A stretch of DNA of 64,000 bases from an uncultured Myxococcales bacterium. GTDB taxonomy: Bacteria > Myxococcota_A > Polyangia > Fen-1088. Below, one piece after another: positions 1,299-52,051 of the stretch (positions within the stretch are counted from its first letter, which is position 1; the number at the start of each line of letters is the position of its first letter). The DNA lies in NCBI GenBank assembly GCA_964443975.1, contig CAYUFS010000031.1:549-64548 (forward strand), given 5' to 3'. Under the pieces are notes generated by a model that was not told where the DNA came from, searched no databases, and was given only the letters and a program-made list of their open reading frames with translations. Position numbers and translations under genes: made by a program.

Positions 1299-3677
1299 AT
1301 GACCTCGATTGACGAGACGGACGAGATCGTCAAGGAGTTCCTCGTCGAGAGCTACGAGAACCTCGATCGATTGGACCGCGATCTCGTGGCGCTGGAGCAG
1401 AACCCGAGCTCGGCGGAGTCCGTGGCCAGCATCTTTCGCACCATCCACACGATCAAGGGGACGTGCGGCTTCCTGGGCTACGCCCGCCTCGAGGCGGTCG
1501 CCCACGCCGGTGAGAACCTGCTCAGCCGCCTGCGCGATCGCGAGATCGTCCTCAGCGCGGAGATCACCACCGCCCTCCTCAGCACCGTCGACGTCATCCG
1601 CGAGATGCTGGCGGCCATAGAGAAGAGCGGACAGGACGGGGACCGCGACTACCCCGAGCTGGTGGCGCGGCTTCACGAGTTGCAAAGCGGGGCCGTGGCG
1701 CCGGCGCCGGCGCCCGTGGCCGCTCCTCCCCCGAAGGCCGTCCCGCAGCCGCTCCCCGTCGCCACCACGGCGGCACCGGCGACCATGCCGTCCTCGGCCC
1801 CGGCCGCGGCCGCGCCGATCGTGCTCCCGGCACCGACATCCGCCTCGCCTGCCAAGGCCGCCCTCGCTCCCGGCAAACCAGCGCCAGCCGCCACGCCGCC
1901 CCTCGCGGCGACGGCGCCGGAGCGCGCCCCCTCGAACGAGCCGGCGGACACCCGCGCGGCCTCCGCCGTGACCGATACGTACGTCCGCGTCGACGTTGGC
2001 GTGCTGGACAAGCTGATGAACCTCGTGGGCGAGCTCGTGCTCGCGCGCAACCAGATCCTGCAATTCGTGGCCAGCGCCGACGACCCCAGCTTCACCGCCA
2101 CCTCCCAGCGCCTCAACCTGATCACCACCGAGCTGCAGTCGGGGGTGATGAAGACCCGCATGCAGCCCATCGGCAACATCTGGGAGAAGCTGCCCCGCGT
2201 GGTCCGCGATCTGTCGCTGGCCCTCGGCAAGCGGATCCACATCGAGATGGAGGGACGCGAGACCGAGCTCGACAAGACCATCATCGAGGCGATCAAGGAT
2301 CCGCTGACTCACCTGGTGCGAAACTGCGTCGACCACGGCCTCGAGACCGAGGCCGAGCGGGTGGCGGCGGGCAAGGACCCGGAGGGGCGGCTGTCGCTGC
2401 GCGCCTTTCACGAGGGCGGGCAGGTGAACATCGAGATCTCCGACGACGGCGCCGGCCTGAACCTGGACCGCATCCGCGCCAAGGCCGTCGAGCGTGGGCT
2501 GCTGTCGGCGGACCAGGCAGCGCGCCTCGCGGATCGCCAGGTCTGCGACCTCATCTTTCTTCCGGGGTTCTCCACGGCCGAGAAGGTCAGCAACGTCTCC
2601 GGGCGGGGCGTGGGCATGGACGTCGTCAAGACGAACGTCGAGCGCATCGGCGGCATCGTCGACCTCGTGAGCCGGCCCGGCCTCGGGACCACCTTCCGCA
2701 TCAAGATTCCGCTGACCCTCGCCATCATTCCGGCGCTCATCGTCACGAGCGGGGGCGATCGCTACGCCATCCCCCAGATCAGTCTCCTCGAGCTCGTGCG
2801 CCTCACGGGAGCCCAGGTGAAGGACTCCATCGATTCGATTCACGGGACGCCGGTGTGCCGGCTGCGCGGCAGCCTGCTGCCGCTCGTCGATCTGGGACGC
2901 GAGCTCGGCTTCGGCGACCCCCGCGAGCCCCTGAAGCTGGCCGAGGCCGAGACGGTGAGCATCGTGGTCCTGCAAGCGGACAATCACCGCTTCGGCCTCA
3001 TCGTCGACCGCATCACCGACAGCGAGGAGATCGTCGTCAAGCCGCTCGGCAAGCACCTGAAGGGCATCCCGGCCTTCGCGGGCGCGACGATCATGGGCGA
3101 TGGGCGGGTCGCGCTGATTCTGGACGTCCTCGGGCTCGCCCAGGTGGCGAGGGTGGTCGGCCAGGGCCAGGACCGCACGAAGTCGAAGCGAACGCAGACC
3201 GTCGAAGCCTCGGAGCGCCGCAAGCAGAGCCTGTTGCTGTTCAGCCTGTCCGATGGCCGGCCCGTCGCCGTGCCGCTGTCGATGGTCGCTCGGCTGGAGA
3301 TCTTCGACGCGCGCACGGTCGAGGCGCTGCAGGACTACCGGGTCGTCCAGTATCGCGGCGAGGTGCTCCCGCTGCTGGACGTCGACACCCTGATGGGCAC
3401 CGGCGCCGCGAACTGGGACGCCGAGGGTCCCCTGCACGTGGTGGTGCACGGGGTCGGCGACCGCCACATCGGCCTCGTGGTGCGGCGGATCATCGACGTC
3501 GTCGAGGAGCACGTCGACGTCAAGCGCCCGACCTCGGGCCGGAGCGCGAGCGGCGTGCTCGGGTGCGCCGTCATCCAGAAGCGCGTGACGGAGATGCTGG
3601 ACCTGGACGCCATGTTGCGGCTGGAGGCGGGGCGCTTCTTGGCCGGCGACGAGACCACGACAGGGGCGGAGGGCTGA
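1299..3677 (+). CDS. cheA: Chemotaxis histidine kinase CheA (Hpt, Pro/Ala linker, dimerisation, HATPase, two CheW-like domains)
   Basis: FRTIHTIKG Hpt motif; HLVRNCVDHG; VSGRGVGMDVV; two C-terminal CheW-like domains (RYAIPQISLLE.., PVAVPLSMVARLE..). Confidence 0.97.
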   Translation: MTSIDETDEIVKEFLVESYENLDRLDRDLVALEQNPSSAESVASIFRTIHTIKGTCGFLGYARLEAVAHAGENLLSRLRDREIVLSAEITTALLSTVDVIREMLAAIEKSGQDGDRDYPELVARLHELQSGAVAPAPAPVAAPPPKAVPQPLPVATTAAPATMPSSAPAAAAPIVLPAPTSASPAKAALAPGKPAPAATPPLAATAPERAPSNEPADTRAASAVTDTYVRVDVGVLDKLMNLVGELVLARNQILQFVASADDPSFTATSQRLNLITTELQSGVMKTRMQPIGNIWEKLPRVVRDLSLALGKRIHIEMEGRETELDKTIIEAIKDPLTHLVRNCVDHGLETEAERVAAGKDPEGRLSLRAFHEGGQVNIEISDDGAGLNLDRIRAKAVERGLLSADQAARLADRQVCDLIFLPGFSTAEKVSNVSGRGVGMDVVKTNVERIGGIVDLVSRPGLGTTFRIKIPLTLAIIPALIVTSGGDRYAIPQISLLELVRLTGAQVKDSIDSIHGTPVCRLRGSLLPLVDLGRELGFGDPREPLKLAEAETVSIVVLQADNHRFGLIVDRITDSEEIVVKPLGKHLKGIPAFAGATIMGDGRVALILDVLGLAQVARVVGQGQDRTKSKRTQTVEASERRKQSLLLFSLSDGRPVAVPLSMVARLEIFDARTVEALQDYRVVQYRGEVLPLLDVDTLMGTGAANWDAEGPLHVVVHGVGDRHIGLVVRRIIDVVEEHVDVKRPTSGRSASGVLGCAVIQKRVTEMLDLDAMLRLEAGRFLAGDETTTGAEG

Positions 3678-3678
3678 G

Positions 3679-4170: not shown

Positions 4171-4192
4171 CCCCTCCGAGGAGAACCATTCC

Positions 4193-6070: not shown

Positions 6071-6095
6071 GCCCCCTTCAACCAGGAGATCAGAC

Positions 6096-6934: not shown

Positions 6935-6963
6935 GTTTTCCGTAAGGCGAAGAGGAGACGACG

Positions 6964-9041: not shown

Positions 9042-9096
9042 TGCAACCCTCGAACAAGTCAGCGACTCCGACAGCGACGCGGCAGGGCCGCGCGCC

Positions 9097-12715: not shown

Positions 12716-15127
12716 ATGTTCGCGGCCCGGACGACGGCTCACGGGGCACTGGACCTGAGGATGCCGGACCAGCTCGTCGCGCCGGTTCGTCCGGCCCGCT
12801 CGTTGACCGCCGACGCTACTGAAGTAGACGGGCGCGCGGGCGTCACAGCGGCGCGCGACCTGGCCGAAGAGGCGCTCCGAGTCACGCTGCTCCAGCTCGA
12901 CGACGGCGTGCTCGCGACCGACGAGACGGGGGCCGTGACACGCATGAACCCCGTCGCCGAGCGCCTCACCGGCTGGGCCGCCTCCGCGGCCGTGGGGCGG
13001 CCGGTGGCCGAGATCTTTCGCGTCATCGACGCCGGCACCCGCGCCACCGTCCCGAGCGCCGCGGAGCGGGTGCTCGCGGGAGCGGCAGCGGTCCCGCGCG
13101 GGGACACCGTCCAGCTCGTGTCCCGAACCGGCGTGGAGCACAGCGTGCGTCCGAGCGCCGCCCCCGCGTATGACGCCGGCGGCAACCTTCGCGCGGTGGT
13201 CCTCGTCTTTCGCGAGGCCCCGGCCGAGCGCCCGGCCGCCGCCCGCGCCGCCGCTGAGCTCGACCAAAGCCAGGCGCGCCTCAACGCCCTGTACCAGGCG
13301 GGGATCATCGGCGTCGCCGTCGCCACCCTCGACGGCCGGATCGTCGAGATCAACGACACGCTGCTCGACATGTTGGGCTACACGCGCGACGAGATCCTCT
13401 CCGCGCAGATCCCCTGGGCCTCCCTCACGCCTCCGGAGTGGCGGGACGGTGATCGCCGCGCCATCGACCAGCTGCGCGCTGGCGGCGTCATACCCCTGCG
13501 GGAGAAGGAATACCTCCACAAGAACGGCGCCCGCATTCCGGTCGTGGTCGGGTCGACCCTGCTGGCCGGCTCGAAGGACGAGACCATCTCGTTCGTCCTC
13601 GACGTGACGTCGAGCAAGCAGACCGCGATCATGATCGAGCACCTGCGCCAGCTGCGGGCGTCCGAGACCCAGTTCCGCGGGCTGCTGGAGGCCGCCCCCG
13701 ACGCCATCGTGATCGCCGACGCCGCCGGCGCGATCACGCTGGTGAACGGTCAGACCGAGCGTCTCTTCGGTTACGCCCGCGCCGAGCTGATGGGCGAGCC
13801 GCTCGAGACCCTGATTCCCGAGCGGTTCCGGCAGGGGCATCCCCAGCATCGAGCAGAATTCTTCGCGGCGCCGGGGACGCGTCCGATGGGCGCCGCCCTG
13901 GAGCTCTACGGCCGGCGGAAGGACGGCGCCGAGTTTCCCGTCGAGGTCAGCCTCAGCCCCTTGCACACGGAGGCAGGCCTGCTGGTGATGAGCGCCATCC
14001 GCGACATCAGCGAGCGGCGAAAGGCGGACGAGAACCGGTTTCGCCTGGCGGCGATCGTCGAATCCTCCGGCGACGGCATCATCGGCAAGACCCTGGACGG
14101 GATCATCACCAGCTGGAACGAGGGCGCGCGCCGGATCTTCGGCTACACCGCCGACGAGATCATCGGCAAACCCGTCACCACGCTCATCCCCGCTGACCGT
14201 CAGGACGAGGAGGAGTTGATCCTGGCGAAGCTGCACAAGGGCCAGCGCGTCGAGCAGTTCGACACCGTCCGGCTGCGCAAGGACGGCCGCGAGATCCACG
14301 TCTCGCTGACCAGCTCGCCCGTGCGCGACGCGAACGACAACCTCATCGGCGCCTCGAAGATCGTCCGGGACATCACCGGGCGAAAGCGCGCGGAGGACGC
14401 CCTGGCCCACGCCAAGGATCTCGCCGAGGCCGCGAGCCGCGAGCTCGAGGCCTTCAGCTACTCGGTGGCTCACGATCTGCGGGCGCCGTTGCGGGGCATG
14501 AACGGCTTCGCGCACGTCCTGCTCGAGACGTATCGCGACAAGCTGGACGCGGAGGGGCAGGACTGGCTGCAGGAGATCGTCGACAACGCGAAGAAGATGG
14601 GCGAGCTCATCGACGCGCTGCTGTCGCTGGCGCGGCTCACGCGGAGCGAGCTGAAGACCTCGCGCGTGGACCTCTCCGTCCTGGCCGGCGAGGTCCTTGC
14701 GCAGCTCGCGGCGCTCGACCCGCACCGCGCCGTCGAGACCCATGTTCAGCCGGGCATCACCGCGGACGCGGACCCCCGGCTGGCGCGCGCGCTGCTCGAG
14801 AACCTGCTGGGCAACGCCTGGAAGTTCACCGCGAAGGCGCCCCGGGCCCGCATCGACGTGGGCGAGATCGAGATCGCAACCAGCGCGGGCCGGGAGGTGT
14901 CCGTCTTCGTGCGCGACAACGGGGCCGGCTTCGACATGGCGTTCGCCAGCAAGCTGTTCGCGCCGTTTCAACGGCTCCACGCCGCGGTCGAGTTTCCAGG
15001 GACGGGCATCGGCCTCGCGACCGCGCAACGGATCGTCCACCGGCACGGCGGGCGCATCTGGGCAGAGGGCGCCGTCGGCGAGGGCGCCACCTTTCACTTC
15101 ACGCTCCCCGCGCGGGCAGGAACGTAA
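12716..15127 (+). CDS. Cytoplasmic sensor histidine kinase with four PAS domains
   Basis: PAS starts RMNPVAERLTGW, EINDTLLDMLGY, LVNGQTERLFGY, SWNEGARRIFGY; H-box FSYSVAHDLRAPLR; NLLGNAWKFT, DNGAGF, GTGIGL. Start uncertain (alternative 12758). Confidence 0.93.
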   Translation: MFAARTTAHGALDLRMPDQLVAPVRPARSLTADATEVDGRAGVTAARDLAEEALRVTLLQLDDGVLATDETGAVTRMNPVAERLTGWAASAAVGRPVAEIFRVIDAGTRATVPSAAERVLAGAAAVPRGDTVQLVSRTGVEHSVRPSAAPAYDAGGNLRAVVLVFREAPAERPAAARAAAELDQSQARLNALYQAGIIGVAVATLDGRIVEINDTLLDMLGYTRDEILSAQIPWASLTPPEWRDGDRRAIDQLRAGGVIPLREKEYLHKNGARIPVVVGSTLLAGSKDETISFVLDVTSSKQTAIMIEHLRQLRASETQFRGLLEAAPDAIVIADAAGAITLVNGQTERLFGYARAELMGEPLETLIPERFRQGHPQHRAEFFAAPGTRPMGAALELYGRRKDGAEFPVEVSLSPLHTEAGLLVMSAIRDISERRKADENRFRLAAIVESSGDGIIGKTLDGIITSWNEGARRIFGYTADEIIGKPVTTLIPADRQDEEELILAKLHKGQRVEQFDTVRLRKDGREIHVSLTSSPVRDANDNLIGASKIVRDITGRKRAEDALAHAKDLAEAASRELEAFSYSVAHDLRAPLRGMNGFAHVLLETYRDKLDAEGQDWLQEIVDNAKKMGELIDALLSLARLTRSELKTSRVDLSVLAGEVLAQLAALDPHRAVETHVQPGITADADPRLARALLENLLGNAWKFTAKAPRARIDVGEIEIATSAGREVSVFVRDNGAGFDMAFASKLFAPFQRLHAAVEFPGTGIGLATAQRIVHRHGGRIWAEGAVGEGATFHFTLPARAGT

Positions 15128-15130
15128 CAA

Positions 15131-15583
15131 ATGAGCAAAACCATCCTGCTGGTGGAGGACAACGCCAGCGACGAGAAGTTGACGCTGCTGGCGTTCAAGA
15201 CCTGCGGCGTCTCGAACGACGTGATTGTGGCGCGCGACGGGGCCGCGGCGCTCGAATTCCTATTTTCCGAAGGGCCAGACTCCCCCCGGGCGGACAGGCC
15301 ACTGCCCACGTTGGTCCTCCTCGACCTCAAGCTGCCGAAGATTGACGGGCTCGAGGTCCTCCGACGCATTCGCGGCGACGAGCGCACGAGGCTGCTGCCC
15401 GTCATCGTGCTGACCGCGTCGCGCGAGGACGAGGACGTCGTCAACAGCTACCAGCTGGGCGCGAACGCCTACGTCCGCAAGCCGGTGGAGTTCAGCGAGT
15501 TCGCTCAGGCCGCCAAGACGCTGGGCCTCTTCTGGTTGTTGCTGAACCAGCCGGTTCCCCCTTCCGCCGCGGGGCGGAAATGA
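15131..15583 (+). CDS. Single-domain response regulator (Rcp1-like)
   Basis: LLVEDNASD, LLDLKLPKIDG, LTAS, GANAYVRKPV. Confidence 0.93.
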   Translation: MSKTILLVEDNASDEKLTLLAFKTCGVSNDVIVARDGAAALEFLFSEGPDSPRADRPLPTLVLLDLKLPKIDGLEVLRRIRGDERTRLLPVIVLTASREDEDVVNSYQLGANAYVRKPVEFSEFAQAAKTLGLFWLLLNQPVPPSAAGRK

Positions 15584-17181
15584 GCGACGCGAGCAAGGGC
15601 GAGCCGCTCCGCGTGCTGATGGTCGAGGACTCGCCGAGCGACGCGAAGCTGGTCATCCAGACGCTCCGGGGCCTTGGTCGCACCATCACCTGCGAGCGCG
15701 TCGACACCGCGGACGCGATGGCGGAATGTCTCGGCCGGGGGCCGTGGGACATCGTGCTGTCCGACTGGTCGATGCCCACGTTCAGCGCGCTGGCTGCCCT
15801 GGCCGTCCTGCGGGAGAAGGCCGTCGACGTGCCGTTCATCATCGTCTCCGGGACGATCGGCGAGGAGACGGCGGTGGAGGCGATGCGCGCGGGGGCCCAA
15901 GACTACGTCCTCAAGGACAAGCTCGGCCGGCTGACCCCGGCCATCGAACGCGAGCTCCGCGAGTCCGCGGATCGACGCGCCCGCCGCGACGCCGAGGCCG
16001 GACGCACCCGCGCCGAGCAGGCGCTGCGGCAGAGCGAAGAGCAGCTCCGCCAGGCCCAGAAGATGGAGGCGATCGGTCGCCTGGCGGGCGGCGTGGCCCA
16101 CGACTTCAACAACTTGCTGTCGGTGATCCTCAGCTACCTCGAGCTGGCGCTGGGCGCGCTCGAGCCCGACGACCCCATGCACGAAGATCTGAAGGAAGCG
16201 CACACGGCGGCGGCGCGGGCCGCGGGCCTCACCCGCCAGCTGCTGCTGTTCAGCCGCCACCAGGTGTTCGAGCCCGCGGTCGTCGACGTCCACGAGCTCC
16301 TGCGTGGAATGACCAAGATGATCGAACGGATTCTGGGCGAGGACGTGGATCTGGTGGTCGTGCCGCCGCCGGCACCGGGCCGCGTGCTGGTGGACCGCAG
16401 CCACCTGGAACAGGTGCTGCTGAACCTGGTGGTCAATGCCCGCGACGCGATGCCGACGGGCGGCAAGCTGACGATCGAGACGGCGAACGCCGTCCTCGAT
16501 GAGGAGTACACCACCCGCCACTTCCCGGCCAAGCCCGGCCGCTACGTGATGATCGCGATCAGCGACACGGGTATCGGTATGAGCCCCGAGGTCCAGGCGC
16601 GCATCTTCGAGCCCTTCTACACCACGAAGGAGAAGGGGAAAGGGACCGGTCTTGGTCTCTCCACGGTCTTCGGGATCGTCCAGCAGAGCGAAGGGAACAT
16701 CTGGGTCTACAGCGAGCCCGGACACGGGACGACCTTCAAGATCTACCTGCCGCGCGTCGACGCCGAGCTCAATGACCACAAGCCGCCCGTCGACCCTTCC
16801 ACGCTGCAAGGCAGCGAGACCATCTTGCTGGTCGAGGACGAGCAGCAGGTGCGCGTCGTCGCCTTCAACGTGCTCCGCAGATACGGGTACGACGTGCTGT
16901 CGGCGCAGCACCCGGGGGAGGCGCTGATCGTCAGCGAGCGGCACGCCGGCCGGATCGACCTGTTGCTGACGGACGTGGTGATGCCTCAGATGAGCGGGCC
17001 CGAGCTCGCGAAACGCCTGGGCGCCGCCCGCCCCGAGATGAAGATCCTCTTCATGTCGGGTTACACCGACGACAGCGTGGTTCGCCACGGCGTGCTGGAA
17101 GACGGCGCCGCGTTCCTGCAGAAGCCGATCACGCCCGCCGCCCTGGCGAAGAAGGTGCGCTCCGTCCTGGACGGCGCCTGA
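15580..17181 (+). CDS. Hybrid histidine kinase (REC-HisKA-HATPase-REC)
   Basis: N-terminal REC; [12 protein letters not shown]-box; [17 protein letters not shown]; C-terminal [12 protein letters not shown]. Confidence 0.94.
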
Positions 17182-41359: not shown

Positions 41360-43198
41360 TTACATGCTGCCGGCGATGCGGCTGCGGAAGGCGTCGCTCA
41401 TCACGATCGAGCGAATCACGCTCTGCAAGCTGCCGTCGGTCGACTGCGCCTTGGCAGACAGGTAACCGATCCACGAACCGTCGTCGGTCTGATTCATGAG
41501 CCGGCCGATGCCGAAGGTCATGAACTTCTGGGTCACGCAGCTCGGCAAACGAGGGTCGCTTGCGATGATGCCGCCAAGCTGGATGGCGCCATTGAACATC
41601 GTGCCGTCCGGCAGGACGCCGCTCGAATCGACCTGAGCGCCCGAATCCGTGGTGCGATAGGCACCAACGGCGTCATAGTTCTCGAGGCCGAAACCAATTG
41701 GATCCATCAGGTTGTGGCAGGGGCTGCAGTTCGGGCTTGCCCGGTGCATTTCCATGCGCTGCCGGAGAGTCTGGCCGGGCACCACCATTTCACTCAGCGG
41801 CGGAATGTTCGCCGGCGGATCCGGGACCTCGTCGCACAAGAGCCGACGGAACACGTACTCGCCACGGCGCACCGGAGACGTGCGGTTCGGGTAGGCGGTG
41901 TTCGTCAGGAACGCCCCGAGCGTCAGGAGCCCCTGGCGCGTGGTGCCCGTGGTGTCCACCTTCACGAAGTCGGTGGCGTTGGACGCGCCCGTGCGGTTGA
42001 GGCCGTAGTACGTCGCCAGGTTCGCGTCGACGAAGGTGAAGGGCGCGTTGAGGATCCCGGTCACGTTGAGGGGATTGTGCAAGAACTCTTGCATGTACCG
42101 GCGGGCCTCACCCTTGAACGACGTCTCGAGCGCGTTCGTGTAGAGCGGGTACAGCATGACGTCGACGTCGTGCGAATCGAGGCTCACGAAGTCGAGCCAC
42201 TTGCCCGAGAAGTTGTCGAGCAGCGTATCGGCGCGCGGATCGGCGAGCATGCGCGTCACCTGCGCGGAGACCTGGTCGTCGGTCGTCAGCTGTCCCATAT
42301 CCGCCGCCGTAGACAGCGTGGCGTCGGGCATCGTGCTCCACAGCGCGTACGAGAGCCGGGTGGCGAGCTCGTAGGAATTGAGGCGCCGGACCGTCCCCGA
42401 GTTCGGATCCGGATCGATCTCTAGCTTGTAGAGGAAGTAGGGCGAGATGAGGACACCCTCCAGTGCCGCCTTGATGCCGTCGAGGGCCGTGAGGCCGAGC
42501 GTCTTGGCAGCGGTGTAAGGCGCCATCATCGCCGTCACCTCATCCGTGGTCGCCGGGCGACGCCACGCCTTGCGCGCGAAGGCCGTCAGAATCGTCTTGG
42601 CGCAGGTGTCGCCCGCCGTCATGACATCGCACGTCGCGACCGTCTTCTGTCGCGTCGCATCCGAGAAAAGATCCGTGATCAAGCTGGTCGCCGCCTGCTC
42701 GTAGCTGACGACATACTCCGGCGCGGTGCTGAGGGCCGAACCGACCGTGTCGAACTCGGCGCCGAGATCATCGCCCGGGAACGTGTCACCCGGGGTCAGC
42801 TTGGTGCCGAGCAGGTCGGCGACGGTGTTGTTGTACTCGACCCGATTGAGTCGTCGCACCACCATGTACCCAGGGTTTTGCGGGGGATTCGCCGGGACGG
42901 TCACGACGACCGTGCCCCCCGATCCGCCTGAACCCGAGCTGGTCTTGGTCCCGCCAGTTCCGGCGGAGCCGCCCGAGACGGTCGTTCCCCCCGTCCCCGA
43001 GCCGCCGGCGGTCTTGGTCCCGCCGCTCCCGCTGCCATTGTTCACCCCACCCGACGTGCCACCCGAGCCTGAGCCCGAGCCCGCCCCCGGAGCGCCGTTC
43101 GAGCCGGGCTTCGGGTTCATGACGGCGCCGGTACATCCCAGCGACAGCAGCAGCGCGATACTCGCGCCTGCCATCAGGCCATGATTCAAGCGTTCCAT
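41360..43198 (-). CDS. DUF1587/1595/1592/1588/1585 (PSD) domain lipoprotein with one CxxCH motif
   Basis: Lipobox LGC and Gly/Thr linker; RRLNRVEYNNTV, FARKAWRRP, LATRLSYALW, TSPVRRG, CSPCH, DPIGFGLENYDAVG. Confidence 0.9.
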   Translation of the reverse strand: MERLNHGLMAGASIALLLSLGCTGAVMNPKPGSNGAPGAGSGSGSGGTSGGVNNGSGSGGTKTAGGSGTGGTTVSGGSAGTGGTKTSSGSGGSGGTVVVTVPANPPQNPGYMVVRRLNRVEYNNTVADLLGTKLTPGDTFPGDDLGAEFDTVGSALSTAPEYVVSYEQAATSLITDLFSDATRQKTVATCDVMTAGDTCAKTILTAFARKAWRRPATTDEVTAMMAPYTAAKTLGLTALDGIKAALEGVLISPYFLYKLEIDPDPNSGTVRRLNSYELATRLSYALWSTMPDATLSTAADMGQLTTDDQVSAQVTRMLADPRADTLLDNFSGKWLDFVSLDSHDVDVMLYPLYTNALETSFKGEARRYMQEFLHNPLNVTGILNAPFTFVDANLATYYGLNRTGASNATDFVKVDTTGTTRQGLLTLGAFLTNTAYPNRTSPVRRGEYVFRRLLCDEVPDPPANIPPLSEMVVPGQTLRQRMEMHRASPNCSPCHNLMDPIGFGLENYDAVGAYRTTDSGAQVDSSGVLPDGTMFNGAIQLGGIIASDPRLPSCVTQKFMTFGIGRLMNQTDDGSWIGYLSAKAQSTDGSLQSVIRSIVMSDAFRSRIAGSM

Positions 43199-44625
43199 GC
43201 GAGCGCCTCCTTGCCATCGTTGCCGAAGGCCGTCACTTTCACACCGAAAAGGCTGAGCAGCTGGATGTAGAAATCGCCGTACGTCTTGACGTTCGAATAG
43301 TCGGTCCCGACGGCGTTGGGATACTGAACGAGTCGGTTCGGCTTGATGAGCCCGCCGAGTTGGCCAAGAACCACGGTGGGCAGATTGTCGTGATTGTGGC
43401 GGTTGCCGTCGCCAATCTCGCTGCTCATGACGATGGCGCTGTTGTACAGCATGTCGTGTCCGTCGGCGTCCATCAGCGACTTCATCTTCTGCACGAAGGT
43501 GCTGATCCAGATCATCTTGTACAGGGAGATCTGGTGGTAGACCTCCATGAGCCCCGCGTCGCTACCGTAGTGCGAGGACTGGTGATCCGAGGTGGCACCC
43601 CCCGCCTTTGCTCCGGCTGCCGCGACCGCGGGGACGAAGCTGTAGTTTCGGCTGGTCACCGCATCCGACAGCATGAACGTGATGACCCGCGTTATGTCGC
43701 ACTGGAAGGCGATGGCGATCAGGCTGTGCATGAAGTCGACCTGGTTCTTGTAGTCGACGCCGGTCAGACCGTTCTTGTCGGAGGGATTCACCGCGGGCCC
43801 GGGAACCGTCGGCGGCGTACAGGACCCGGCCGCGGGCGCGTTCTGCAGTTCCTGCTCGAGCGACCGGATGCCCGTGAACAGCTGGTCGAGCTTCGCGCTG
43901 TCGGCCGCATTGAGCTTGTTCTGCAGGGCGCTCTGGTACGGCATCACGCTATCGAGGACGCTCTTCCTTAGCGCTGCGCGCATCTGGGCGTCGGCGTTGC
44001 TGGCGGTCGGGCTGACCCCCATGAACAGCCGGTTGAAGGCGGTCTGCGCGTCGACGATCTTGCCGAGCGGGGTGCCAGCGCCAACCGGGAAAGACATGGT
44101 CCCGTCGGAGTTCGTCACCGACGGTGCCTGCCAGGAGATATTCCGCGTGAAGTACGTTCCGAAAGAGTCGGTCGGGCCTCCGTTGCCCGTACCGAGCTGG
44201 ATCGAGTTGATTCCCCGGCAGCCCGACAGCGCGTCGCCGATGATCTGGTCCACCGACTTGCTCATTTGCTGGGAATTTGGCGTCGCCATACGAGCCGTGA
44301 GGATGGCCCCGGCGCCGAGAGCGTGGTCACCCGTCTGCCGACGACGCTGCTGGTTCTCGAGCCCGGTGATGTAGGTCATGTCCGCCTGGTAGGGCGCCCA
44401 GGTCGGCATGGTGATGGGCAACCCCCAGGTGGCGCCAGCGCCGGTCGGGTTGTGGTCCTGCATGTAGTTGCCGTTCGGGTAGTGGTAGAACATGAACCGC
44501 TTGATGGGCGCGCAGGTCGCGGCGCCCGCCTTGCGGGTCCACATGAGCGAAGGCAACATCGGAAGCGTCACGGTCACGCCCGCCGAAGTTATGAATCGTC
44601 GCCTCGAGAATCGTCCGCTGAACAT
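43186..44625 (-). CDS. DUF1552 (HXXSHH) family protein with Tat-like signal
   Basis: CAGGAG RBS before ATG 44625; SRRRFI, TLPML, AFQCDITRVIT, HQSSHY, SEIGDGNRH. Confidence 0.9.
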   Translation of the reverse strand: MFSGRFSRRRFITSAGVTVTLPMLPSLMWTRKAGAATCAPIKRFMFYHYPNGNYMQDHNPTGAGATWGLPITMPTWAPYQADMTYITGLENQQRRRQTGDHALGAGAILTARMATPNSQQMSKSVDQIIGDALSGCRGINSIQLGTGNGGPTDSFGTYFTRNISWQAPSVTNSDGTMSFPVGAGTPLGKIVDAQTAFNRLFMGVSPTASNADAQMRAALRKSVLDSVMPYQSALQNKLNAADSAKLDQLFTGIRSLEQELQNAPAAGSCTPPTVPGPAVNPSDKNGLTGVDYKNQVDFMHSLIAIAFQCDITRVITFMLSDAVTSRNYSFVPAVAAAGAKAGGATSDHQSSHYGSDAGLMEVYHQISLYKMIWISTFVQKMKSLMDADGHDMLYNSAIVMSSEIGDGNRHNHDNLPTVVLGQLGGLIKPNRLVQYPNAVGTDYSNVKTYGDFYIQLLSLFGVKVTAFGNDGKEALAWNA

Positions 44626-44944
44626 TGCTGTCTCCTGGAGGATGGTGAGCTTAACAGCCGAAGTCGCCACGCATCGGCGTACGCGCAGCTTGCATCTTCT
44701 TGCGTTGGGTGACCGAGAAAAGCGCCGCCGACGAGGGGGTCGCGCCTTCGAAAAAGGTGCTTGGCCTTGGTGGAACACACTGCCTCGACATCGGACACCT
44801 CCCTAGCAAGGTCCTCGGGGACCGGCACCTGTCTTACCATTTCCAGGCCGAGCCGGACTCTCACCGTTGGTGCGCAGATACCAGATGGGTCTAACCATTA
44901 CTGCGCGGATGCGCGTTCCAAGGGATCCAGAAAAGACTAAACTT

Positions 44945-46160: not shown

Positions 46161-46766
46161 ATGAACCTGCCTCGCGCGATGGTGGTGCTCTTCGGCTTCG
46201 GCTTGGCGATGTCCGCGAGGCCGTCGTCCGCCGCAGGCGGGGATGACGCCCGCCGCCCCGCCACGCCCGCTCCGGCGGACCTGAACGAGCCGGCGCCGAC
46301 CACCCCTTCCCTTTACGACCACCCGTGGGTCTGGCGCGACGATGACGGCGCGGCGCTGTCACTCGCCCGTTTTCGCGGCTCGACCGTGGTCATCACCATG
46401 GGCTACGCCTCATGCCAGGTGCGGTGCCCCCCGACCATCACCAAGCTGCAACACCTCGAGCGCGCCTTCGCGAAGCAGGGACGCCCCGTGAGCTTCATCC
46501 TCGTGACCATCGACCCGGCGACCGACACGCCCGCGCGACTGGCGGCGCTGCGGCGCGACCGGAACCTGACCCCAGGCGTGTGGCACTTGCTGTCCGGCCC
46601 TGAGTCGCAGACGCGCGAGCTGGCGCGCCTGCTCGACATTGCCTACGTGGACGCCGGCGGACACTTCGAACATCAGGTTCGCGTCATCGTCCTCGACGCC
46701 CGCGGTCGCGTCGCCCGTCGCTTCGAAGGCTGGCACTTCGACGACGCGTCGGCGCTATCGCCCTGA
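46161..46766 (+). CDS. SCO1/SenC family copper chaperone
   Basis: Signal peptide; YASCQVRCP (CxxxC), VTIDPATDTP, distal His in FEHQ. Confidence 0.88.
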   Translation: MNLPRAMVVLFGFGLAMSARPSSAAGGDDARRPATPAPADLNEPAPTTPSLYDHPWVWRDDDGAALSLARFRGSTVVITMGYASCQVRCPPTITKLQHLERAFAKQGRPVSFILVTIDPATDTPARLAALRRDRNLTPGVWHLLSGPESQTRELARLLDIAYVDAGGHFEHQVRVIVLDARGRVARRFEGWHFDDASALSP

Positions 46767-46978: not shown

Positions 46979-48151
46979 GTGGACCAGGCAGACAGTCAGG
47001 AATCGAAGGGTTTCGAGGGTAGAAACGGTGTCTGCCGGGGGCGAGGGCAACCCCGCGGATGGTGGCCTCCGCGCCGCTCCCCTCGCCTCGCGGCGCGACC
47101 GGTCGTCGCCGTCGCCGCGGCCACGCTCGGCCTCGTGCTGCTCGCCGCGCCCGCGCGCGCCCAGGTGGCGCTGAACCTGTACGGCAACGCCGACTATCAC
47201 GCGATGAAGGACAGCGGGCAGACCACCAACGCCTTCGGAACGGCGCTGGCGGACGTGTTCCTGTCGGGGACCAAGGAGAAGCTCTCCTACCTGGCGGAGT
47301 TCGTGTTCGAGGTCGGCGACAACAACGAGTTCGCCGTCGACGTCGAGCGGCTTCAGCTCGGATACCAGGTGACTGAATGGTTCCGGGTCGCGGCCGGGCG
47401 CTTTCACACGGCCTTCGGCTACATCAACGACAGCTACCACCACGGCGCCTACTACCTGCTTTCGACGGGTCGTCCGACCTTCGTGAACTTCGAGGACGGC
47501 GGTGGCCTGATCCCGGCCCACAGCGTGGGCTTGCACATCGACGGCCGGTTTCACCTGGGCTCGTCGCGGTTGCGCTACGACGCCGAGCTCGCAAACGGAC
47601 GCGCTGCCACATCCGATCAGGTGACGAACCGGATCGATCCGAACAATGGCAAGGCGGTCAACCTCCGCCTTCGCCTCGAACCGGGCGGCGTGCTCGACGG
47701 CCTCGTCTTCGGCGGCAACGTCTACCTCGACACGATCGACACGACGGACGCCCTGATGGTCCCCGTTCGGATGAGCGAGCAGGCCTACGGGGCACACCTC
47801 GCCTATATGGAGCACAACGTTCACCTGATCTCGGAGACGGCCTTGTTCCGCCACGTCGAGAGCAACGGCGGGCCCACGCACCAGACCGTGGCCACGTTCG
47901 TGGAGCTCGGATACAGCTTCGCCGAGCTCACGCCTTATGCTCGCTACGAGCGCACCTCGTTCGGGAGCGGGCCCGTCGATCCCTACTGGGCGGCGGGAGC
48001 GGCGGCGCGGGGCAGCTTTCACGTCGTGACCGGCGGCCTCAACTACCTCGCCTCCGACAGCGTGGCCCTCAAGCTCGAGGGCAAGTACCAGCACTTCGAC
48101 TCGAACCAGACCTCGAAGGGTCTCTCCGCGCAGGTGGCCTATGCGTTCTAA
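46979..48151 (+). CDS. Outer-membrane porin-like beta-barrel
   Basis: GAGGAGG RBS before GTG; signal peptide ending ARA-Q; VERLQLGY, AGRFHTAFG, alternating strands, C-terminal QVAYAF. Confidence 0.82.
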   Translation: MDQADSQESKGFEGRNGVCRGRGQPRGWWPPRRSPRLAARPVVAVAAATLGLVLLAAPARAQVALNLYGNADYHAMKDSGQTTNAFGTALADVFLSGTKEKLSYLAEFVFEVGDNNEFAVDVERLQLGYQVTEWFRVAAGRFHTAFGYINDSYHHGAYYLLSTGRPTFVNFEDGGGLIPAHSVGLHIDGRFHLGSSRLRYDAELANGRAATSDQVTNRIDPNNGKAVNLRLRLEPGGVLDGLVFGGNVYLDTIDTTDALMVPVRMSEQAYGAHLAYMEHNVHLISETALFRHVESNGGPTHQTVATFVELGYSFAELTPYARYERTSFGSGPVDPYWAAGAAARGSFHVVTGGLNYLASDSVALKLEGKYQHFDSNQTSKGLSAQVAYAF

Positions 48152-48617
48152 GTCGCGACGAGATGGGCGCTGGCTGTGGCGGCTCGCGGGCTTCCTGGGA
48201 GTGCTGACGATGTTCCTGGCCGCGGTGGCGGCGGCGGCCGGGCCGAGCCCGTACGTGTTGATCAAGAACGCGCGGAACAAGTCCATCGCCACCATCAGCA
48301 AGGCCGACGCCCGCGATATCTTCACCGGGAAACGGAAGCTCTGGTCGACGGGCGAGGTCGTCCAGATCGTGCTCCGCCCCGGCGAGGGCGACGGCATCGA
48401 GTGGCTGGCCCAGGACGTCTTCGGCGTGTCCCCTCGAAACCTGCTCACCAAGATCCGGCAGGAGGTGTTCAAGGGCGAGATGGCCAAGCCCATCGTCGCA
48501 GCCTCCGACGAGGAGACGATCAAACAGGTGGTGAGCGTGGGCGGGGCCATCGGCATCATCCCGGCCCCTCTGGCGGCGAAGCTGCCCGCTGAAGCGGTCG
48601 TATTGCCCATCAACTGA
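48141..48617 (+). CDS. Small exported protein resembling one lobe of a phosphate-binding (PBP2) protein
   Basis: Signal peptide; ISKADARDIFTGKRKLW, SDEETIKQV..GAIGII; overlaps the porin stop. Confidence 0.72.
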   Translation: MRSKSRRDGRWLWRLAGFLGVLTMFLAAVAAAAGPSPYVLIKNARNKSIATISKADARDIFTGKRKLWSTGEVVQIVLRPGEGDGIEWLAQDVFGVSPRNLLTKIRQEVFKGEMAKPIVAASDEETIKQVVSVGGAIGIIPAPLAAKLPAEAVVLPIN

Positions 48618-48629
48618 GGAACAACAGCG

Positions 48630-50693
48630 ATGAACTCAACAGCGCCCGGGCCTTCGAAGGAGGGGCGGACCCTCAAGCTGAAACTACTGCTTGGGTGTCT
48701 GACTCCGCTCCTGGTGGCGGTGATCTGCCAGGGCCTCTACACGGTGACTGCGCAACGCAAGGCGCTGATCGGTGGCCTCGAGGAGAAGGGTCGCTCGCTG
48801 GGCGCGCTGATGGTGAACGTGGTCGGCCCCAGCCTGGCCCTCGACGATCTGCCCGGCGCCACGGAGGGCCTCGGCTTCATCGCCAAGGACGCCGACTTCG
48901 CGTTCTCGGCGGCGCTCGCGCCCGATGGCAGGGTGCTGAGCTTCGTCGGTCCCGAGGCCGCGCGGCCCCTGCTCGCCGCCTCGGCCTCCGCTGTGAAGGC
49001 TCCCAGTCTGGTCGTCGGACGGGAGGTCCTGGTGGCCCTCTATCCGCTCAAGCCAGGGACCACCGACCTCGGCACGGTCGCGGTGGGCCTCAAGACCAGC
49101 AACGTGCGCGCCGCCGCGAACCGAATGGTGGCGCGCGTCGTCCTGATCGCGGCGGTCGGGATCATGATCGCCGTCCTGGTCGTCCTGTTGCTGGCGGCCG
49201 CGATCGTCCGCAGAAACCGCGATCTCAAGCTGATCATGGACAACGTGGGCCAGGGCTTCATGAGCGTGAAGCGCGGCGGCGAGGTCCTGCCCGAGCACTC
49301 CGCCATCCTCGAGAGCTGGTTCGGCGCCTGGCAGTCGGGCGCGCCCTTCTGGGGCTACATCGGCGGCGCCTCGAAGAAGCTGGAAAGCTGGTTCGAGCTG
49401 ATGTGGGACAACGTTCGTTCCGACGTGCTGCCGGTGGAGATCGCTCTCGAGCAACTGCCGGTGCGGGCCGAGGTCGGAGGCAAGACCTTCGAGTTTCAGT
49501 ACAAGCCCATCTTCAAGGGCGCCCACCTCCTCCACATCATGTTCGTGATCTCGGACATCACCGCGCTCGTGGAACAGGAGCACGCGAGCTCGGAGCAGCG
49601 TGAGCTGATGAGCTTGTTTCAGTGGCTGCTGAAGGATCGGACCGGCCTCCTCGAGTTCTTTCACGACGCCAACGGCCTGGTGCAGCAGTCGGCCACCTGG
49701 GGCGACGACGATCTCGGCGCCCTCAAGCGCAACATTCACACGCTGAAGGGCAACGCCTCGGTGTTCCGGCTCGAGAGCGTCACCCGGGTCTGCGAGGCCA
49801 TCGAGAACCGCTGGGCCGATGGGGCAGACGGGCGTCTGTCGGACGATGAGATCGCGGTCCTGCTCGCCACGTGGAAGGGCGTTCAGGACCGGATGTTGCG
49901 ACTGCTCGACGGCGACGACGCCCGCCGCTTGGAGATCGAGCTGCACGAGCACGACGAGCTCATCGCCGCGATCGAGCGGCAAGAGCCGCACGCGGCGCTG
50001 TTCGAGATCGCCCGCGCATGGACCTTCGAGCCGATGAAGCAACGCCTGGGGCGCTACGGCAAGCAGGCGGGCGAGCTGGCCCGCCGCCTGAACAAGGGTG
50101 AGCTCACCGTCCGCGTGGAAGCGGACGGCGTTCGGTTGCCGCAGGGGATGCTGGCGCCCTTCTGGTCATCCGCCGCCCACCTGATCCGAAACGCGGTGGA
50201 CCACGGCATCGAAACCCCCGACGAGCGGCGTGACGCCGGCAAGGATGGCCCCGCCGTCCTGGTGTTGCACGCCTCCCGACAGGATGAAGGTCTGGTCGTC
50301 GCCATCGAGGACAATGGGCGCGGCATCTCGTGGGACAAGCTCGCGGAGAAGGCGCGCGCCGCTGGGCTGCCGTCGTCTTCGCGGGAGGATCTGGTCGCTG
50401 CCTTGTTCGCGGACGGCATCACCACCCGCGAGGGAGCGACGGAGGTGTCGGGGCGTGGGGTGGGGATGAGCGCGGTCCGTGAGGCCTGCGAGGCCACTGG
50501 CGGCCGGCTCTCGGTCTGGAGCGAGCCGGGCAAGGGCACGCGCTTCGAGTTCGCCTGGCCACGCACGCTGCTGGAGCCCGCTCGCGACCATGAGGTGACG
50601 AAAGCAGCCGCCTCGGCCACGGGAGCACCAAGGAGTGGTTCGGAGGCGAGACCTGGCACAGGCAAGGTGGCTCCGAAGAAGGTGGCTGCCTGA
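48630..50693 (+). CDS. Membrane-anchored CheA-like histidine kinase (TM-periplasmic domain-TM, PAS-like, Hpt, CheA-type HATPase, no CheW domain)
   Basis: Two TM helices; IMDNVGQGF...SDIT (PAS-like); NIHTLKGNAS (Hpt); HLIRNAVDHGIE, IEDNGRGI, EVSGRGVGM; ends shortly after the ATPase domain. Confidence 0.88.
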   Translation: MNSTAPGPSKEGRTLKLKLLLGCLTPLLVAVICQGLYTVTAQRKALIGGLEEKGRSLGALMVNVVGPSLALDDLPGATEGLGFIAKDADFAFSAALAPDGRVLSFVGPEAARPLLAASASAVKAPSLVVGREVLVALYPLKPGTTDLGTVAVGLKTSNVRAAANRMVARVVLIAAVGIMIAVLVVLLLAAAIVRRNRDLKLIMDNVGQGFMSVKRGGEVLPEHSAILESWFGAWQSGAPFWGYIGGASKKLESWFELMWDNVRSDVLPVEIALEQLPVRAEVGGKTFEFQYKPIFKGAHLLHIMFVISDITALVEQEHASSEQRELMSLFQWLLKDRTGLLEFFHDANGLVQQSATWGDDDLGALKRNIHTLKGNASVFRLESVTRVCEAIENRWADGADGRLSDDEIAVLLATWKGVQDRMLRLLDGDDARRLEIELHEHDELIAAIERQEPHAALFEIARAWTFEPMKQRLGRYGKQAGELARRLNKGELTVRVEADGVRLPQGMLAPFWSSAAHLIRNAVDHGIETPDERRDAGKDGPAVLVLHASRQDEGLVVAIEDNGRGISWDKLAEKARAAGLPSSSREDLVAALFADGITTREGATEVSGRGVGMSAVREACEATGGRLSVWSEPGKGTRFEFAWPRTLLEPARDHEVTKAAASATGAPRSGSEARPGTGKVAPKKVAA

Positions 50694-51658
50694 TGACCGG
50701 CCAGAGCCTGTCCCTCTCCACGGTCATCCAGGCGGTCGCCGACGCCGTGCGCAAGCAGCACGCCGAGCTGCGCGACGAGATCGCGATGGTTCAGAGCGTG
50801 AGCGAACGCGAGGTGCTCGCCGCGGGGGGGGCCATCGCAAAGATCTTCGAGGAGATGACCGAGCACACGGCGCGCCTGTCCGCGCTCAAGGCGCACGAAT
50901 CGAGCGACAGCGCCAAGGGCTCGTTCGCGGCCGTGCTCACCCGCTTCGCGGGCGAGATGCCGGCGCTGCTTGGCGTGCTCGTGAGCGAGACCACGTCCCA
51001 ATCGCGCCTCGCCAGCGGCGCCGCCGCCCAGATTCGCGAGGTGACGAACCTGGCCGAGGACATGTCCCGGATCGCCCAGTGGTGCCGGGTGGTGGCAAGC
51101 AACGCGCGCGTCGAGGCCGCCCACGCAGGCGAGCTGGGTGCCGGGTTCGCCGTCCTCGCGGACTCGCTGGCGGCCATGTCGAACGACATCGCGCGGGCCA
51201 CGAAGTCCATCCAGGACCGAGCGACGGCGGTGAGGGGCATCGTGTCGGAGATGGCCGATGGGGCCGCCAAGGTCGCGGCGGAGGGGCGCGCCCGCACGGC
51301 GACCATGAAGGCCTCGGTGGGCGAGTGCCAGAAGGCGTACCAGGACGGCGTCGTGGGATCGATCCATGGGTTCGAACAGAACGCAGCCTCCATTCGCGAT
51401 CGCTCGAACGCGGCGCTCAGCCACCTGCAGTTCCAGGACCGCCTTCAGCAATCCCTGGATCACGTGCTCGAGGGGAACGCGCGCATCGTCGCCGGGCTGG
51501 AATCCCTGGCGGCCGACCTGGCCGGGGCCGACGCGCCCGCGTCGATCGAGGGGCTCGAGGAGGTCCTGCACCAGCTCTTCACGAACGCCTCCGCGCTGGC
51601 GGTCGTGCGGGATCTCGCCGGAAGCGAGCGCTCGGACGGCGAGATCCAATTTCTCTGA
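50693..51658 (+). CDS. Soluble MCP-signalling-domain-like coiled-coil protein with C-terminal QFQD motif
   Basis: No TM segment; degenerate tip VVASNARVEAAHAGELGAGFAVLA; LSHLQFQDRLQQ; ATG overlaps the upstream stop. Confidence 0.78.
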   Translation: MTGQSLSLSTVIQAVADAVRKQHAELRDEIAMVQSVSEREVLAAGGAIAKIFEEMTEHTARLSALKAHESSDSAKGSFAAVLTRFAGEMPALLGVLVSETTSQSRLASGAAAQIREVTNLAEDMSRIAQWCRVVASNARVEAAHAGELGAGFAVLADSLAAMSNDIARATKSIQDRATAVRGIVSEMADGAAKVAAEGRARTATMKASVGECQKAYQDGVVGSIHGFEQNAASIRDRSNAALSHLQFQDRLQQSLDHVLEGNARIVAGLESLAADLAGADAPASIEGLEEVLHQLFTNASALAVVRDLAGSERSDGEIQFL

Positions 51659-51682: not shown

Positions 51683-52051
51683 ATGGCGAACCAGAAGACC
51701 ATCCTCATTGTCGATGACTCCGCGACCGTCCGGCAAATGCTCACGTTGACCTTGACCGGTGGTGGCTTCAACGTCGTCGCCGCGGAGAACGGGGCCGAGG
51801 GGCTCGCGGCGGCAAAGAAGCAGAAGGCGGACCTCGTGATCTCGGACGTCAACATGCCGGTCATGACCGGCCTGCAGATGATCGCGGAGATCCGCAAGCT
51901 GCCGAGCTACGCGAAGACACCGATCTTCGTCCTGACGACCGAGTCGGGAGCGCGGGTCGCCGAAGGCAAGGCCGTGGGCGCCTCGGCCTGGATCGTGAAG
52001 CCTTTCAAGCCGGAGAGCCTGCTCGCCGGCGTGAAGCGCGCGACGGGCTAA
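51683..52051 (+). CDS. cheY: CheY-like single-domain response regulator
   Basis: IVDDS, ISDVNMP, LTTES, WIVKPF. Confidence 0.92.
   Translation: MANQKTILIVDDSATVRQMLTLTLTGGGFNVVAAENGAEGLAAAKKQKADLVISDVNMPVMTGLQMIAEIRKLPSYAKTPIFVLTTESGARVAEGKAVGASAWIVKPFKPESLLAGVKRATG

Follow-up and report, generated by a model that had tools for sequence, protein, structure and literature searches.

The gene at positions 48630-50693 (+) of a 64,000-nucleotide stretch of DNA from an uncultured Myxococcales bacterium (contig CAYUFS010000031.1; this whole stretch is called the window below) encodes a 687-residue protein in which the catalytic core of the chemotaxis kinase CheA is fused to a transmembrane sensor of its own. 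The reading that we favour, and consider probable from the sequence, is that of a self-sensing transmembrane kinase which would pass a phosphoryl group from His370 to a CheY-like response regulator encoded in the same operon. Its output half is a CheA reduced to a minimum, namely a P1-type histidine phosphotransfer (Hpt) domain, a linker of around 40 residues and the P4 catalytic domain. This domain content recurs, with its motifs conserved, throughout a family of kinases, and the operon is conserved in related loci, where the kinase is inherited together with the CheY-like regulator.

The coordinates span the whole gene, stop codon included, and its GC content at the three codon positions (0.69/0.47/0.88) is usual for coding sequence in the window. 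From N- to C-terminus, the protein is laid out as follows:

48669..48752 (+), first transmembrane segment (TM1), residues ~14-41, from a Kyte-Doolittle scan; residues 10-70 form one unbroken helix in the AlphaFold2 model
48753..49109 (+), predicted periplasmic sensor domain, residues ~42-160, about 120 residues of alpha/beta structure, from hydropathy and AlphaFold2
49110..49220 (+), second transmembrane segment (TM2), residues ~161-197, from hydropathy and AlphaFold2, entering the PAS-like domain directly with no HAMP domain in between
49221..49559 (+), predicted PAS-like cytoplasmic domain, family-specific, residues ~198-310, from AlphaFold2 and family conservation
49560..49907 (+), Hpt domain, assigned to the CheA P1 type, residues ~311-426, from Pfam, AlphaFold2 and family conservation
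49737..49739 (+), codon of His370, within the IHTLKG motif at residues 369-374
49908..50027 (+), linker in the place of P2 and P3, residues 427-466, from hhalign and AlphaFold2
50028..50573 (+), ATP-binding catalytic domain of the CheA P4 type, residues 467-648, from Pfam, NCBIfam, PDB and Foldseek, with HLIRNAVDHG at residue 517, EDNGRG at residue 560 and SGRGVGM at residue 607
50574..50690 (+), low-complexity, disordered C-terminal tail, residues 649-687, occupying the position of P5 in CheA

This layout agrees with an earlier sequence-only reading of the window, which had described TM1, a periplasmic domain of ~125 residues (about 120 were found), TM2, the lack of a HAMP domain, an Hpt domain with the IHTLKG motif and a low-complexity tail of ~40 residues without a CheW domain. 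All four motifs that it had quoted sit where it had placed them. Hydropathy gives the two transmembrane segments, and the tail shows in the AlphaFold2 model, where residues 653-687, of low complexity, have a predicted local distance difference test (pLDDT) score below 50 within a model of mean pLDDT 84.7. The domain scan with hidden Markov models that the same reading had proposed returned only two Pfam domains, Hpt (residues 343-409, E 9e-9) and HATPase_c (residues 516-645, E 5e-17). CheW, H-kinase_dim, HisKA and HAMP had no Pfam match in the 687 residues, in keeping with the earlier statement that no HisKA H-box is evident.

What kind of catalytic domain does the kinase carry? The proposal of a CheA-type core is upheld by profile, sequence and structure comparisons. 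NCBIfam CheA models match residues 435-647 at E 1e-36 and 1e-30, and CheA chains in the PDB match residues 433-647 with E values from 2e-29 (E. coli CheA) to 7e-26, whereas class I kinases in the PDB reach only E ~4e-4, on the G2 region. The Foldseek comparison of the model with P4 of T. maritima CheA gives a TM-score of 0.8-0.85. The window itself encodes a CheA (1299..3677, +; 792 residues), which the sequence-only reading had called the true one; by Pfam it is indeed canonical, with Hpt, H-kinase_dim, HATPase_c and CheW, the CheW domain being matched in two stretches and followed by a C-terminal extension of ~170 residues. By BLASTP the kinase is 35% identical to this CheA over residues 494-647. 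In the kinase, the N box (H517, N521, D524, H525, G526), the G1 box (D561, G563, G565), the F box (F593, G596) and the G2 box (S607, G608, R609, G610, G612) are all intact, and the residues of these ATP-binding boxes are kept in 92-100% of 145 aligned family members, so that the kinase is under selection as an enzyme. The alignment indicates strong purifying selection on all catalytic motifs of the CheA-type pair of P1 and P4. A pseudokinase was also considered and was rejected on the conservation of the catalytic motifs across the 145 members.

The Hpt domain is likewise of the CheA P1 type, judging from profile matches and residue spacing. Its predicted phospho-acceptor is His370, with Lys373 and Glu392 as partner residues, and in the AlphaFold2 model it forms four helices (311-355, 362-378, 382-396 and 405-426). 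H370, T371, G374 and E392 are invariant in all 145 members, K373 is kept in 98% and C388 in 96%, and a His at position 389 is found in 88%. The same spacing, with a Lys three residues, a His 19 residues and a Glu 22 residues after the acceptor His, occurs in the window CheA (H50, K53, H69 and E72). In CheA, Glu70 and Lys51 support the phosphorylation of the acceptor His by P4. The best PDB matches of the family profile are two structures of the T. maritima CheA P1 domain, 2ld6 and 1tqg (E 4e-9), which have 'HTLKG...LCHTLE' in common with the family; other Hpt domains match less well (BarA, E 7e-5; Ypd1, E 1e-3). The claim of an Hpt domain is thus sound, both by Pfam and by the invariance of His370.

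The sequence-only reading had noted the lack of P5, and here the kinase goes further, since P2 and the P3 hairpin are absent too. Neither P5 nor CheW is detected by Pfam in the protein, and tblastn with the P5 domain of the window CheA, with its C-terminal extension and with the window CheW gave, over all frames of the operon, no match with an E value under 3. The P3 domain of the window CheA had no tblastn match in the operon either, and no P2 was found in the kinase. Only ~40 residues lie between the last Hpt helix and P4, modelled as two 12-residue helices (438-449 and 454-465). When the family was aligned by hhalign with 65 CheA P3-P4 segments, the alignment began only at residue 454 (probability 91%); what is left of P3 is its last ~12 residues (about 454-466), corresponding to the end of its second helix and the hinge into P4. 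The relatives end in the same way. In 141 of the 145 aligned members, those in which both motifs could be located, 33-91 residues separate the G2 box from the C-terminus, which is too short for a CheW domain of ~135 residues. Among 57 members scanned with Pfam, neither CheW nor H-kinase_dim nor HisKA was among the 25 most frequent of 29 families. Since neither a CheW domain nor a HisKA H-box was detected, and the lack of P5 is not peculiar to one strain (the gene is identical in at least seven metagenome runs and the relatives end alike), the description of the protein as a class II catalytic core joined to a sensor of its own is right.

The input half is known mainly from its predicted structure. 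The periplasmic domain is modelled, at a pLDDT mostly of 80-93, as helices 42-70 and 74-86, strands 90-96 and 102-106, helix 109-118 and strands 126-129, 133-140 and 148-155, an order of elements that would fit a PDC or single-Cache-like fold. The NCBIfam model NF053592 ('HK_near_YfiR_like') matches residues 15-194 at E 7e-6 with 25.7 bits, under its cutoff of 194, and gives a hint on the fold of the sensor only. For the whole kinase model, the top Foldseek match is a model of WalK. Residues 208-309 have the strand and helix order of a PAS domain, at a pLDDT around 90. This region is present in all relatives, with G209, S224, W230, P268, Q275, P277 and D309 invariant or nearly so, and in the relative at locus L011 the same region matches PAS_4 at E 3.6e-4. 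The PAS-like segment of the earlier reading is therefore supported by the predicted fold and by this relative, but not by Pfam on the window protein itself: when the periplasmic domain, the PAS-like domain and the linker were each searched separately, none had a Pfam match at E values up to 10. A family profile of the PAS-like and Hpt domains, searched against PDB sequences, found matches through the Hpt domain and none for the PAS-like part. In the model, the last helix of the PAS-like domain (311-355) runs on as helix 1 of the Hpt bundle.

The kinase is one member of a large family. At least seven independent rhizosphere metagenome runs contain its gene with identical 31-mers, and a word-indexed search returned about 55 relatives, all with Hpt and HATPase_c and without CheW, and with variable N-termini. 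An exhaustive HMMER search with residues 195-687 against 1.84 billion representatives of 50% identity clusters found 1,892 representatives at E <= 1e-30; the best 150 of these all had E values under 1e-91, were matched over the whole core and carried it at the C-terminus. Going by these matches, the family would comprise at least 150 clusters at 50% identity and possibly ~1,900. Its core consists of the PAS-like domain, an Hpt domain with the pattern HTLKGN-x12-C-x3-E, a linker of ~40 residues and P4, and ends no more than ~90 residues after the G2 box. Over the whole core the window kinase is 30-79% identical to the members, and it keeps all the invariant columns of the family except position 389, where it has Glu and not His. 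The members carry mixed labels in the databases, among them 'CheA', 'Hpt domain-containing protein' and 'ATP-binding protein'.

While Hpt and HATPase_c were found in all 57 members scanned for Pfam architecture, the inputs of these proteins were diverse: HAMP in 39 (against none in the window kinase), CHASE8 in 15, GAF in six, dCache in four, PAS_4 in four, Cache_3-Cache_2 in three, CHASE4 in two and Pkinase with AAA_16 in two, with single cases of NIT, sCache_2, Phosphonate-bd, MASE3, MASE7 and Y_Y_Y. The N-terminal sensors are thus swapped freely, in the manner of class I kinases. The two members with a Ser/Thr protein kinase domain and AAA_16 are most likely P0087 (2025 residues) and P0190 (2003 residues), in which the core lies C-terminal to ~1,500 residues of other sequence; these would be fusions of a eukaryotic-like kinase with a histidine kinase.

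When GTDB species genomes were scanned with a DNA pattern for HTLKGN-x12-C-x3-E, at least 119 stretches were obtained, and at least 74 of these loci have the PAS-like domain, Hpt and P4 in a row and no P5, with seven more cut by the end of the stretch. Among the pattern matches listed, only one has P5 (L231, from Holophagales), and the closest relative of the kinase comes from the metagenome-assembled genome of an uncultured Myxococcales bacterium (L272). The carriers are mostly Myxococcota, including Polyangiaceae, Kofleriaceae, Nannocystaceae, Labilithrix, Sorangium, Archangium and Myxococcaceae; others belong to Oligoflexus and Oligoflexales, to Planctomycetota (including the cultured Neorhodopirellula pilleata Pla100) and, in a few cases, to Gammaproteobacteria such as Pseudohongiella.

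The sequence-only reading had spoken of a class II kinase converted into a receptor kinase and had proposed a phylogeny of the HATPase domain. We built a neighbour-joining tree from 88 CheA-type P4 domains (19 of the family and 60 of CheW-bearing CheAs) with two class I domains as outgroup. The family forms a clade of its own, and its split from the CheAs plus the outgroup is recovered in 155 of 200 bootstrap replicates, with CheA classes that are unevenly sampled. The alternative split, which sets all CheAs apart from the family plus the outgroup, appears in 20 of 200 replicates, and the root of the tree is unsettled. Because of the unsettled root and the uneven sampling of CheA classes, the tree does not choose between a loss of P3 and P5 and their never having been there. 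Hence the tree separates the family from CheW-bearing CheAs and leaves its root unplaced; of the supposed conversion, the class II core stands, the evolutionary direction implied by the word is not settled by the P4 tree, and the suggestion of a one-off event does not fit a protein that has a large family around it, in which the sensor modules are interchangeable. Four further loci with a CheA-type P4 and no detectable P5 downstream (L023, L043, L056 and L018, belonging to Pyrinomonadaceae, Deltaproteobacteria, Myxococcales and Silvanigrellaceae) branch close to the root end of the tree and not within the main clade of the family; they may be other P5-less lineages or incomplete contigs.

How does the kinase compare with systems already described? 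The core domains of CheA have been defined as P1, P3, P4 and P5, and in the most recent survey, covering 13,673 CheAs, a CheW domain was found in 100%, CheA being described as having no sensor domain (PMC10782961). The window kinase resembles CheA in its type of P4, in its HxxRNxxDHG, DxGxG and SGRGVGM boxes and in having the acceptor His on a separate four-helix bundle of the P1 type, and the partner genes of the family (those for CheY-like receiver (REC) proteins, CheX and methyl-accepting chemotaxis protein (MCP) domains) are of the same kind. It differs from CheA in lacking P2, the P3 hairpin and P5, in having a transmembrane sensor and a PAS-like domain before P1, and in that its operon has no CheW gene. 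The protein lacks P3 and P5, half of the core set, and has its own sensor, so that by the current definition it is not a CheA. The survey identified its CheAs through the MiST database (PMC10782961). MiST probably requires a CheW domain for calling a protein CheA, in which case kinases like this one could not have been seen.

With class I kinases such as WalK, PhoQ and DcuS/CitA, the protein shares two transmembrane helices, a small periplasmic alpha/beta domain, a cytoplasmic PAS-like domain, the shuffling of HAMP, Cache, CHASE, GAF and PAS inputs within its family and a paired response regulator gene. However, its acceptor His lies in a monomeric Hpt bundle, its catalytic domain is far closer to CheA P4 in the PDB search (E 1e-27 to 1e-29, against ~4e-4 for class I CA domains), and it has no DHp/HisKA domain and no H-box, the lack of DHp/HisKA placing it outside class I. 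Nor is it an unorthodox kinase of the ArcB, BarA or TorS type (DHp-CA-REC-Hpt), since it has no REC and its Hpt domain lies upstream of the catalytic domain; DHp is lacking as well. Bipartite CheAs, such as CheA3 and CheA4 of R. sphaeroides or CheAs with a separate Hpt, are similar in showing that signalling survives when the CheA domains are split up or cut down in number (PMC10782961), but they keep P5 on every piece and P3 together with P4, and work in cytoplasmic arrays with CheW. Finally, the order of an outer-membrane protein, a small periplasmic protein and an inner-membrane sensor recalls the YfiBNR system, the three window genes being conserved together and the sensor N-terminus weakly matching NF053592 (as given above). 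Unlike in YfiBNR, the periplasmic protein has no detectable similarity to YfiR/DUF4154 and the output is a kinase and not a diguanylate cyclase; the resemblance is one of layout only.

In the window the kinase gene is the third of five genes in the following order:

46979..48151 (+), porin-like outer-membrane protein, 390 residues, first gene of the conserved module
48141..48617 (+), small periplasmic protein, 158 residues, with a signal-peptide-like segment at residues 11-36
48630..50693 (+), the kinase
50693..51658 (+), soluble protein with an MCP signalling domain, 321 residues, with no transmembrane segment and no sensor domain
51683..52051 (+), CheY-like single-domain response regulator, 122 residues, Pfam Response_reg at E 2e-25

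This five-gene order is kept in three related loci, L166, L165 and L168, whose kinases are 79%, 72% and 53% identical to that of the window, and to which L168 adds a gene for a CheX-domain protein. The porin-like protein has an N-terminal hydrophobic segment and matches Porin_4 at E 3e-5, under the gathering score; its orthologues (47-82% identity) occupy the same place in all three loci. Orthologues of the 158-residue protein lie directly 5' of the kinase gene, again in all three. This protein has no match in Pfam or NCBIfam, and hence no YfiR/DUF4154 signal. Its best PDB sequence match is the PstS-like Sll0540, weak at E 0.077; of its only five homologues one was named a phosphate-binding protein by JGI, and its AlphaFold2 model (pLDDT 48.7) is unusable. 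It is a possible co-sensor of the kinase. The start of its gene overlaps the stop of the porin-like gene, as expected for translational coupling. This start is ambiguous, the public gene call for an identical protein (P0221) having 135 residues; with the ATG at 48141 as its start, the protein has a proper signal peptide, charged in its N-region, and the gene overlaps the porin-like stop. A gene for a SCO1/SenC copper-chaperone-like protein (46161-46766, +) lies just upstream of the porin-like gene, and so it does in L166 (1861-2487); it is possibly part of the module, and would then be a hint that the envelope signal has to do with copper or redox state.

At the other end of the kinase gene the junction reads ...GCCTGATGACC, where the TGA of the kinase and the ATG of the MCP-domain protein overlap by one nucleotide, the A at 50693. 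The MCP-domain protein reaches 33.6 bits with Pfam MCPsignal, against a gathering score of 34.6, a threshold that its orthologues exceed, and its residues 112-180 are matched by MCP tips in the PDB (T. maritima receptors) at E 4e-9. The conserved tip residues are N137, A138, E141, G146, E147, G149, F152 and V154. The MCP-like partners in the window, L165, L168 and L011 have in common the motif 'SHLQFQDR(V/L)QQ', which replaces the EEQ region after the receptor tip, and this motif string was not found in the searchable full-text literature. The response regulator has all the expected residues (DD11-12, D55 within 'SDVNMP', T85 and K106), with Asp55 as the predicted acceptor, and its orthologues in L165 and L168 (74-84% identity) occupy the same place.

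Of 98 family loci, 45 have a REC gene no more than 3.5 kb from the kinase gene, and 13 have an MCP-like gene beside the kinase gene, these 13 including planctomycete and gammaproteobacterial members with other sensors. In Neorhodopirellula pilleata Pla100 (L262), the genes for the kinase, a REC protein and an MCP-like protein occur together. Genes for CheX phosphatases accompany the kinase in L004, L011 and L168. No CheW was detectable in the window operon or in the family loci examined, save for a divergent cluster at the edge of L168. In L004 (8259-9810), a kinase with CHASE8 and HAMP is followed by genes for a CCP_MauG di-haem cytochrome c peroxidase and a cytochrome c'-like protein, after which come the CheX and REC genes; for that branch, this context suggests an input linked to redox state or peroxide. 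Some genomes have paired P5-less Hpt-HATPase kinases: in L009 (7413-11927) they flank a single REC gene, and L007 has two (2897-5509 and 7179-11003), one of them with a REC-GAF-GGDEF protein encoded after it, so that some of the family would seem to have cyclic-di-GMP as their output. At L002/L003, a distant locus of the family, the kinase gene is preceded by genes for a PSD-domain protein and for an HXXSHH (DUF1552-type) protein.

From the signal to the phosphotransfer partner, the following steps are what we infer for the window operon. A periplasmic signal would alter the sensor dimer, and the 158-residue periplasmic protein and the porin-like protein may relay it. The change would then travel through TM2 and the PAS-like domain into helix 1 of the Hpt domain, setting the access of P4 to His370. 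P4 would autophosphorylate the protein by moving the gamma-phosphate of ATP to His370, with Glu392 and Lys373 taking the roles of Glu70 and Lys51 of CheA, and the phosphoryl group would pass from His370 to Asp55 of the regulator encoded at 51683-52051, which would act on its target by protein-protein contact. In some relatives CheX may remove the phosphoryl group from the regulator. Dimerisation would come from the membrane, sensor and PAS-like part instead of P3, with HAMP adding to it in most relatives. The MCP-domain protein would be a conserved accessory that modulates the kinase or the regulator without CheW or P5; it may act as a second cytoplasmic input directly on the kinase, as a scaffold or as a link to canonical arrays.

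Several points weigh against this reading. The P3 domain, by which CheA joins two sets of P4 and P1 in a dimer, is absent. At position 389 the window kinase has Glu; His is the residue found there in CheA and in 88% of the family. The fold of the sensor and the PAS assignment are those of a predicted model, with Pfam blank on this protein. About half of the family loci have no REC gene nearby, and the closest relatives on large contigs, L001 and L167, are orphan kinases adjoining a Ser/Thr kinase gene, so that the assignment of the partner is not universal. The locus turned up in no RNA run. Moreover, a conserved MCP partner is unexpected for a self-sufficient kinase, and control of a receptor-like kind may persist in part. 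For this reason the 'stand-alone receptor kinase' of the sequence-only reading can be retained only in part: the kinase does have its own sensor fused to a CheA core, but an MCP partner is conserved with it and translationally coupled to it.

That partner also lends itself to a more far-reaching proposal, which we put forward only tentatively: the kinase, the MCP-domain protein and the CheY-like regulator would make up a CheW-independent chemosensory core, in which the tip of the MCP-domain protein acts directly on a kinase that lacks P3 and P5. A related form of the same proposal sees in the family an early stage of CheA evolution, a sensor kinase with P1 and P4 before the array-coupling domains were gained, and not a secondary reduction. 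Were it true, the direct coupling of an MCP tip to a kinase would be a mode known from no chemotaxis system.

Rather less likely, in our view, is an array kinase, that is, a stripped-down or split CheA for which the MCP-domain protein is the receptor and a CheW supplied in trans, for example that encoded at 3679-4170, replaces P5. The window does hold a complete chemosensory cluster with CheW 38 kb upstream of the kinase operon:

1299-10215 (+), canonical chemosensory cluster, beginning with the CheA gene
3679-4170 (+), CheW
4193-6070 (+), 4HB-HAMP MCP
6018-6479 (+), CheY-like REC protein
6476-6934 (+), CheX
6964-8151 (+), double-REC protein
9097-10215 (+), CheB

No CheR was found among the scanned open reading frames of this cluster. 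Another Che cluster lies beside the L168 operon. In addition, the kinase is translationally coupled to an MCP-domain protein whose kinase-control tip is conserved and which recurs beside kinases of the family in several phyla, some members have CheX genes with them, and bipartite CheAs such as CheA3 and CheA4 of R. sphaeroides are documented (PMC10782961). Yet, apart from the divergent cluster already mentioned, the family loci examined offer neither a CheW nor a P5, and 85 of the 98 have no MCP-like gene in the stretch covered. P3 is absent too; in the survey, H-kinase_dim always occurred with P4 and CheW (PMC10782961). The kinase also has its own transmembrane sensor, in a family that swaps sensors as ordinary kinases do.

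A protein that is no autokinase at all seems improbable to a still greater degree. Here the product would be a membrane-anchored phosphotransfer or phosphatase protein, with His370 fed by the receiver domain of another kinase and the ATPase-fold domain in a regulatory role. Hpt domains are commonly relay stations, several other kinases and hybrid kinases are encoded in the window, and two Hpt-kinase genes stand around one REC gene in some loci, such as L009 and L007. But all ATP-binding and catalytic motifs of P4 are conserved in 92-100% of the 145 members, and Glu392, a CheA-specific residue present in 100% of them, would by analogy with CheA Glu70 have a role in autophosphorylation. The closest solved Hpt structure, moreover, is a CheA P1 and not a relay Hpt, and a receiver domain is lacking in the protein.

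That P5 is missing through an artefact, be it an error of assembly, a frameshift or a truncation that arose recently in this one organism, can be set aside almost completely: the idea draws only on the general expectation that odd architectures on metagenome contigs are sometimes errors, and was rejected because the sequence is identical in at least seven independent runs, the downstream frame is fully taken by the conserved MCP-like gene with no P5 remnant in any frame, and more than 140 relatives have the same C-terminal end.

If the self-sensing kinase is the right reading, why does it matter? Among histidine kinases, CheA has been regarded as the only one that does no sensing of its own. 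The family indicates, as far as sequences can tell, that CheA chemistry, in which P4 acts on a separate P1, also serves as the engine of transmembrane sensor kinases with the full input repertoire of bacteria, in hundreds to perhaps ~1,900 sequence clusters. We found no description of P5-less CheA-type kinases with sensor domains in the searchable full-text literature, subscription-only papers being outside its scope, and for specialists in signal transduction the family is a notable gap in the classifications of CheA and of histidine kinases. How P1 and P4 are regulated without P3, P5, CheW and arrays bears on the old question of what switches CheA on and off, and for studying the control of such a pair outside arrays the family is a tractable system. 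The family also raises the question of whether the signalling tip of an MCP can influence a kinase when no CheW takes part. Its place, inside one of the CheA classes or beside all of them, bears on the origin of CheA. In practical terms, the mixed database labels inflate the counts of chemosensory systems in Myxococcota and hide a family of sensor kinases.

Beyond the chemosensory cluster and the kinase operon, the window is dense in two-component genes. A second signalling operon (12716-17181, +) encodes a multi-PAS HisKA kinase of 803 residues, a REC protein of 150 residues and a hybrid HisKA-HATPase-REC protein of 533 residues, and upstream of the module, on the opposite strand (41360-44778, -), lie two large open reading frames of 612 and 530 residues.

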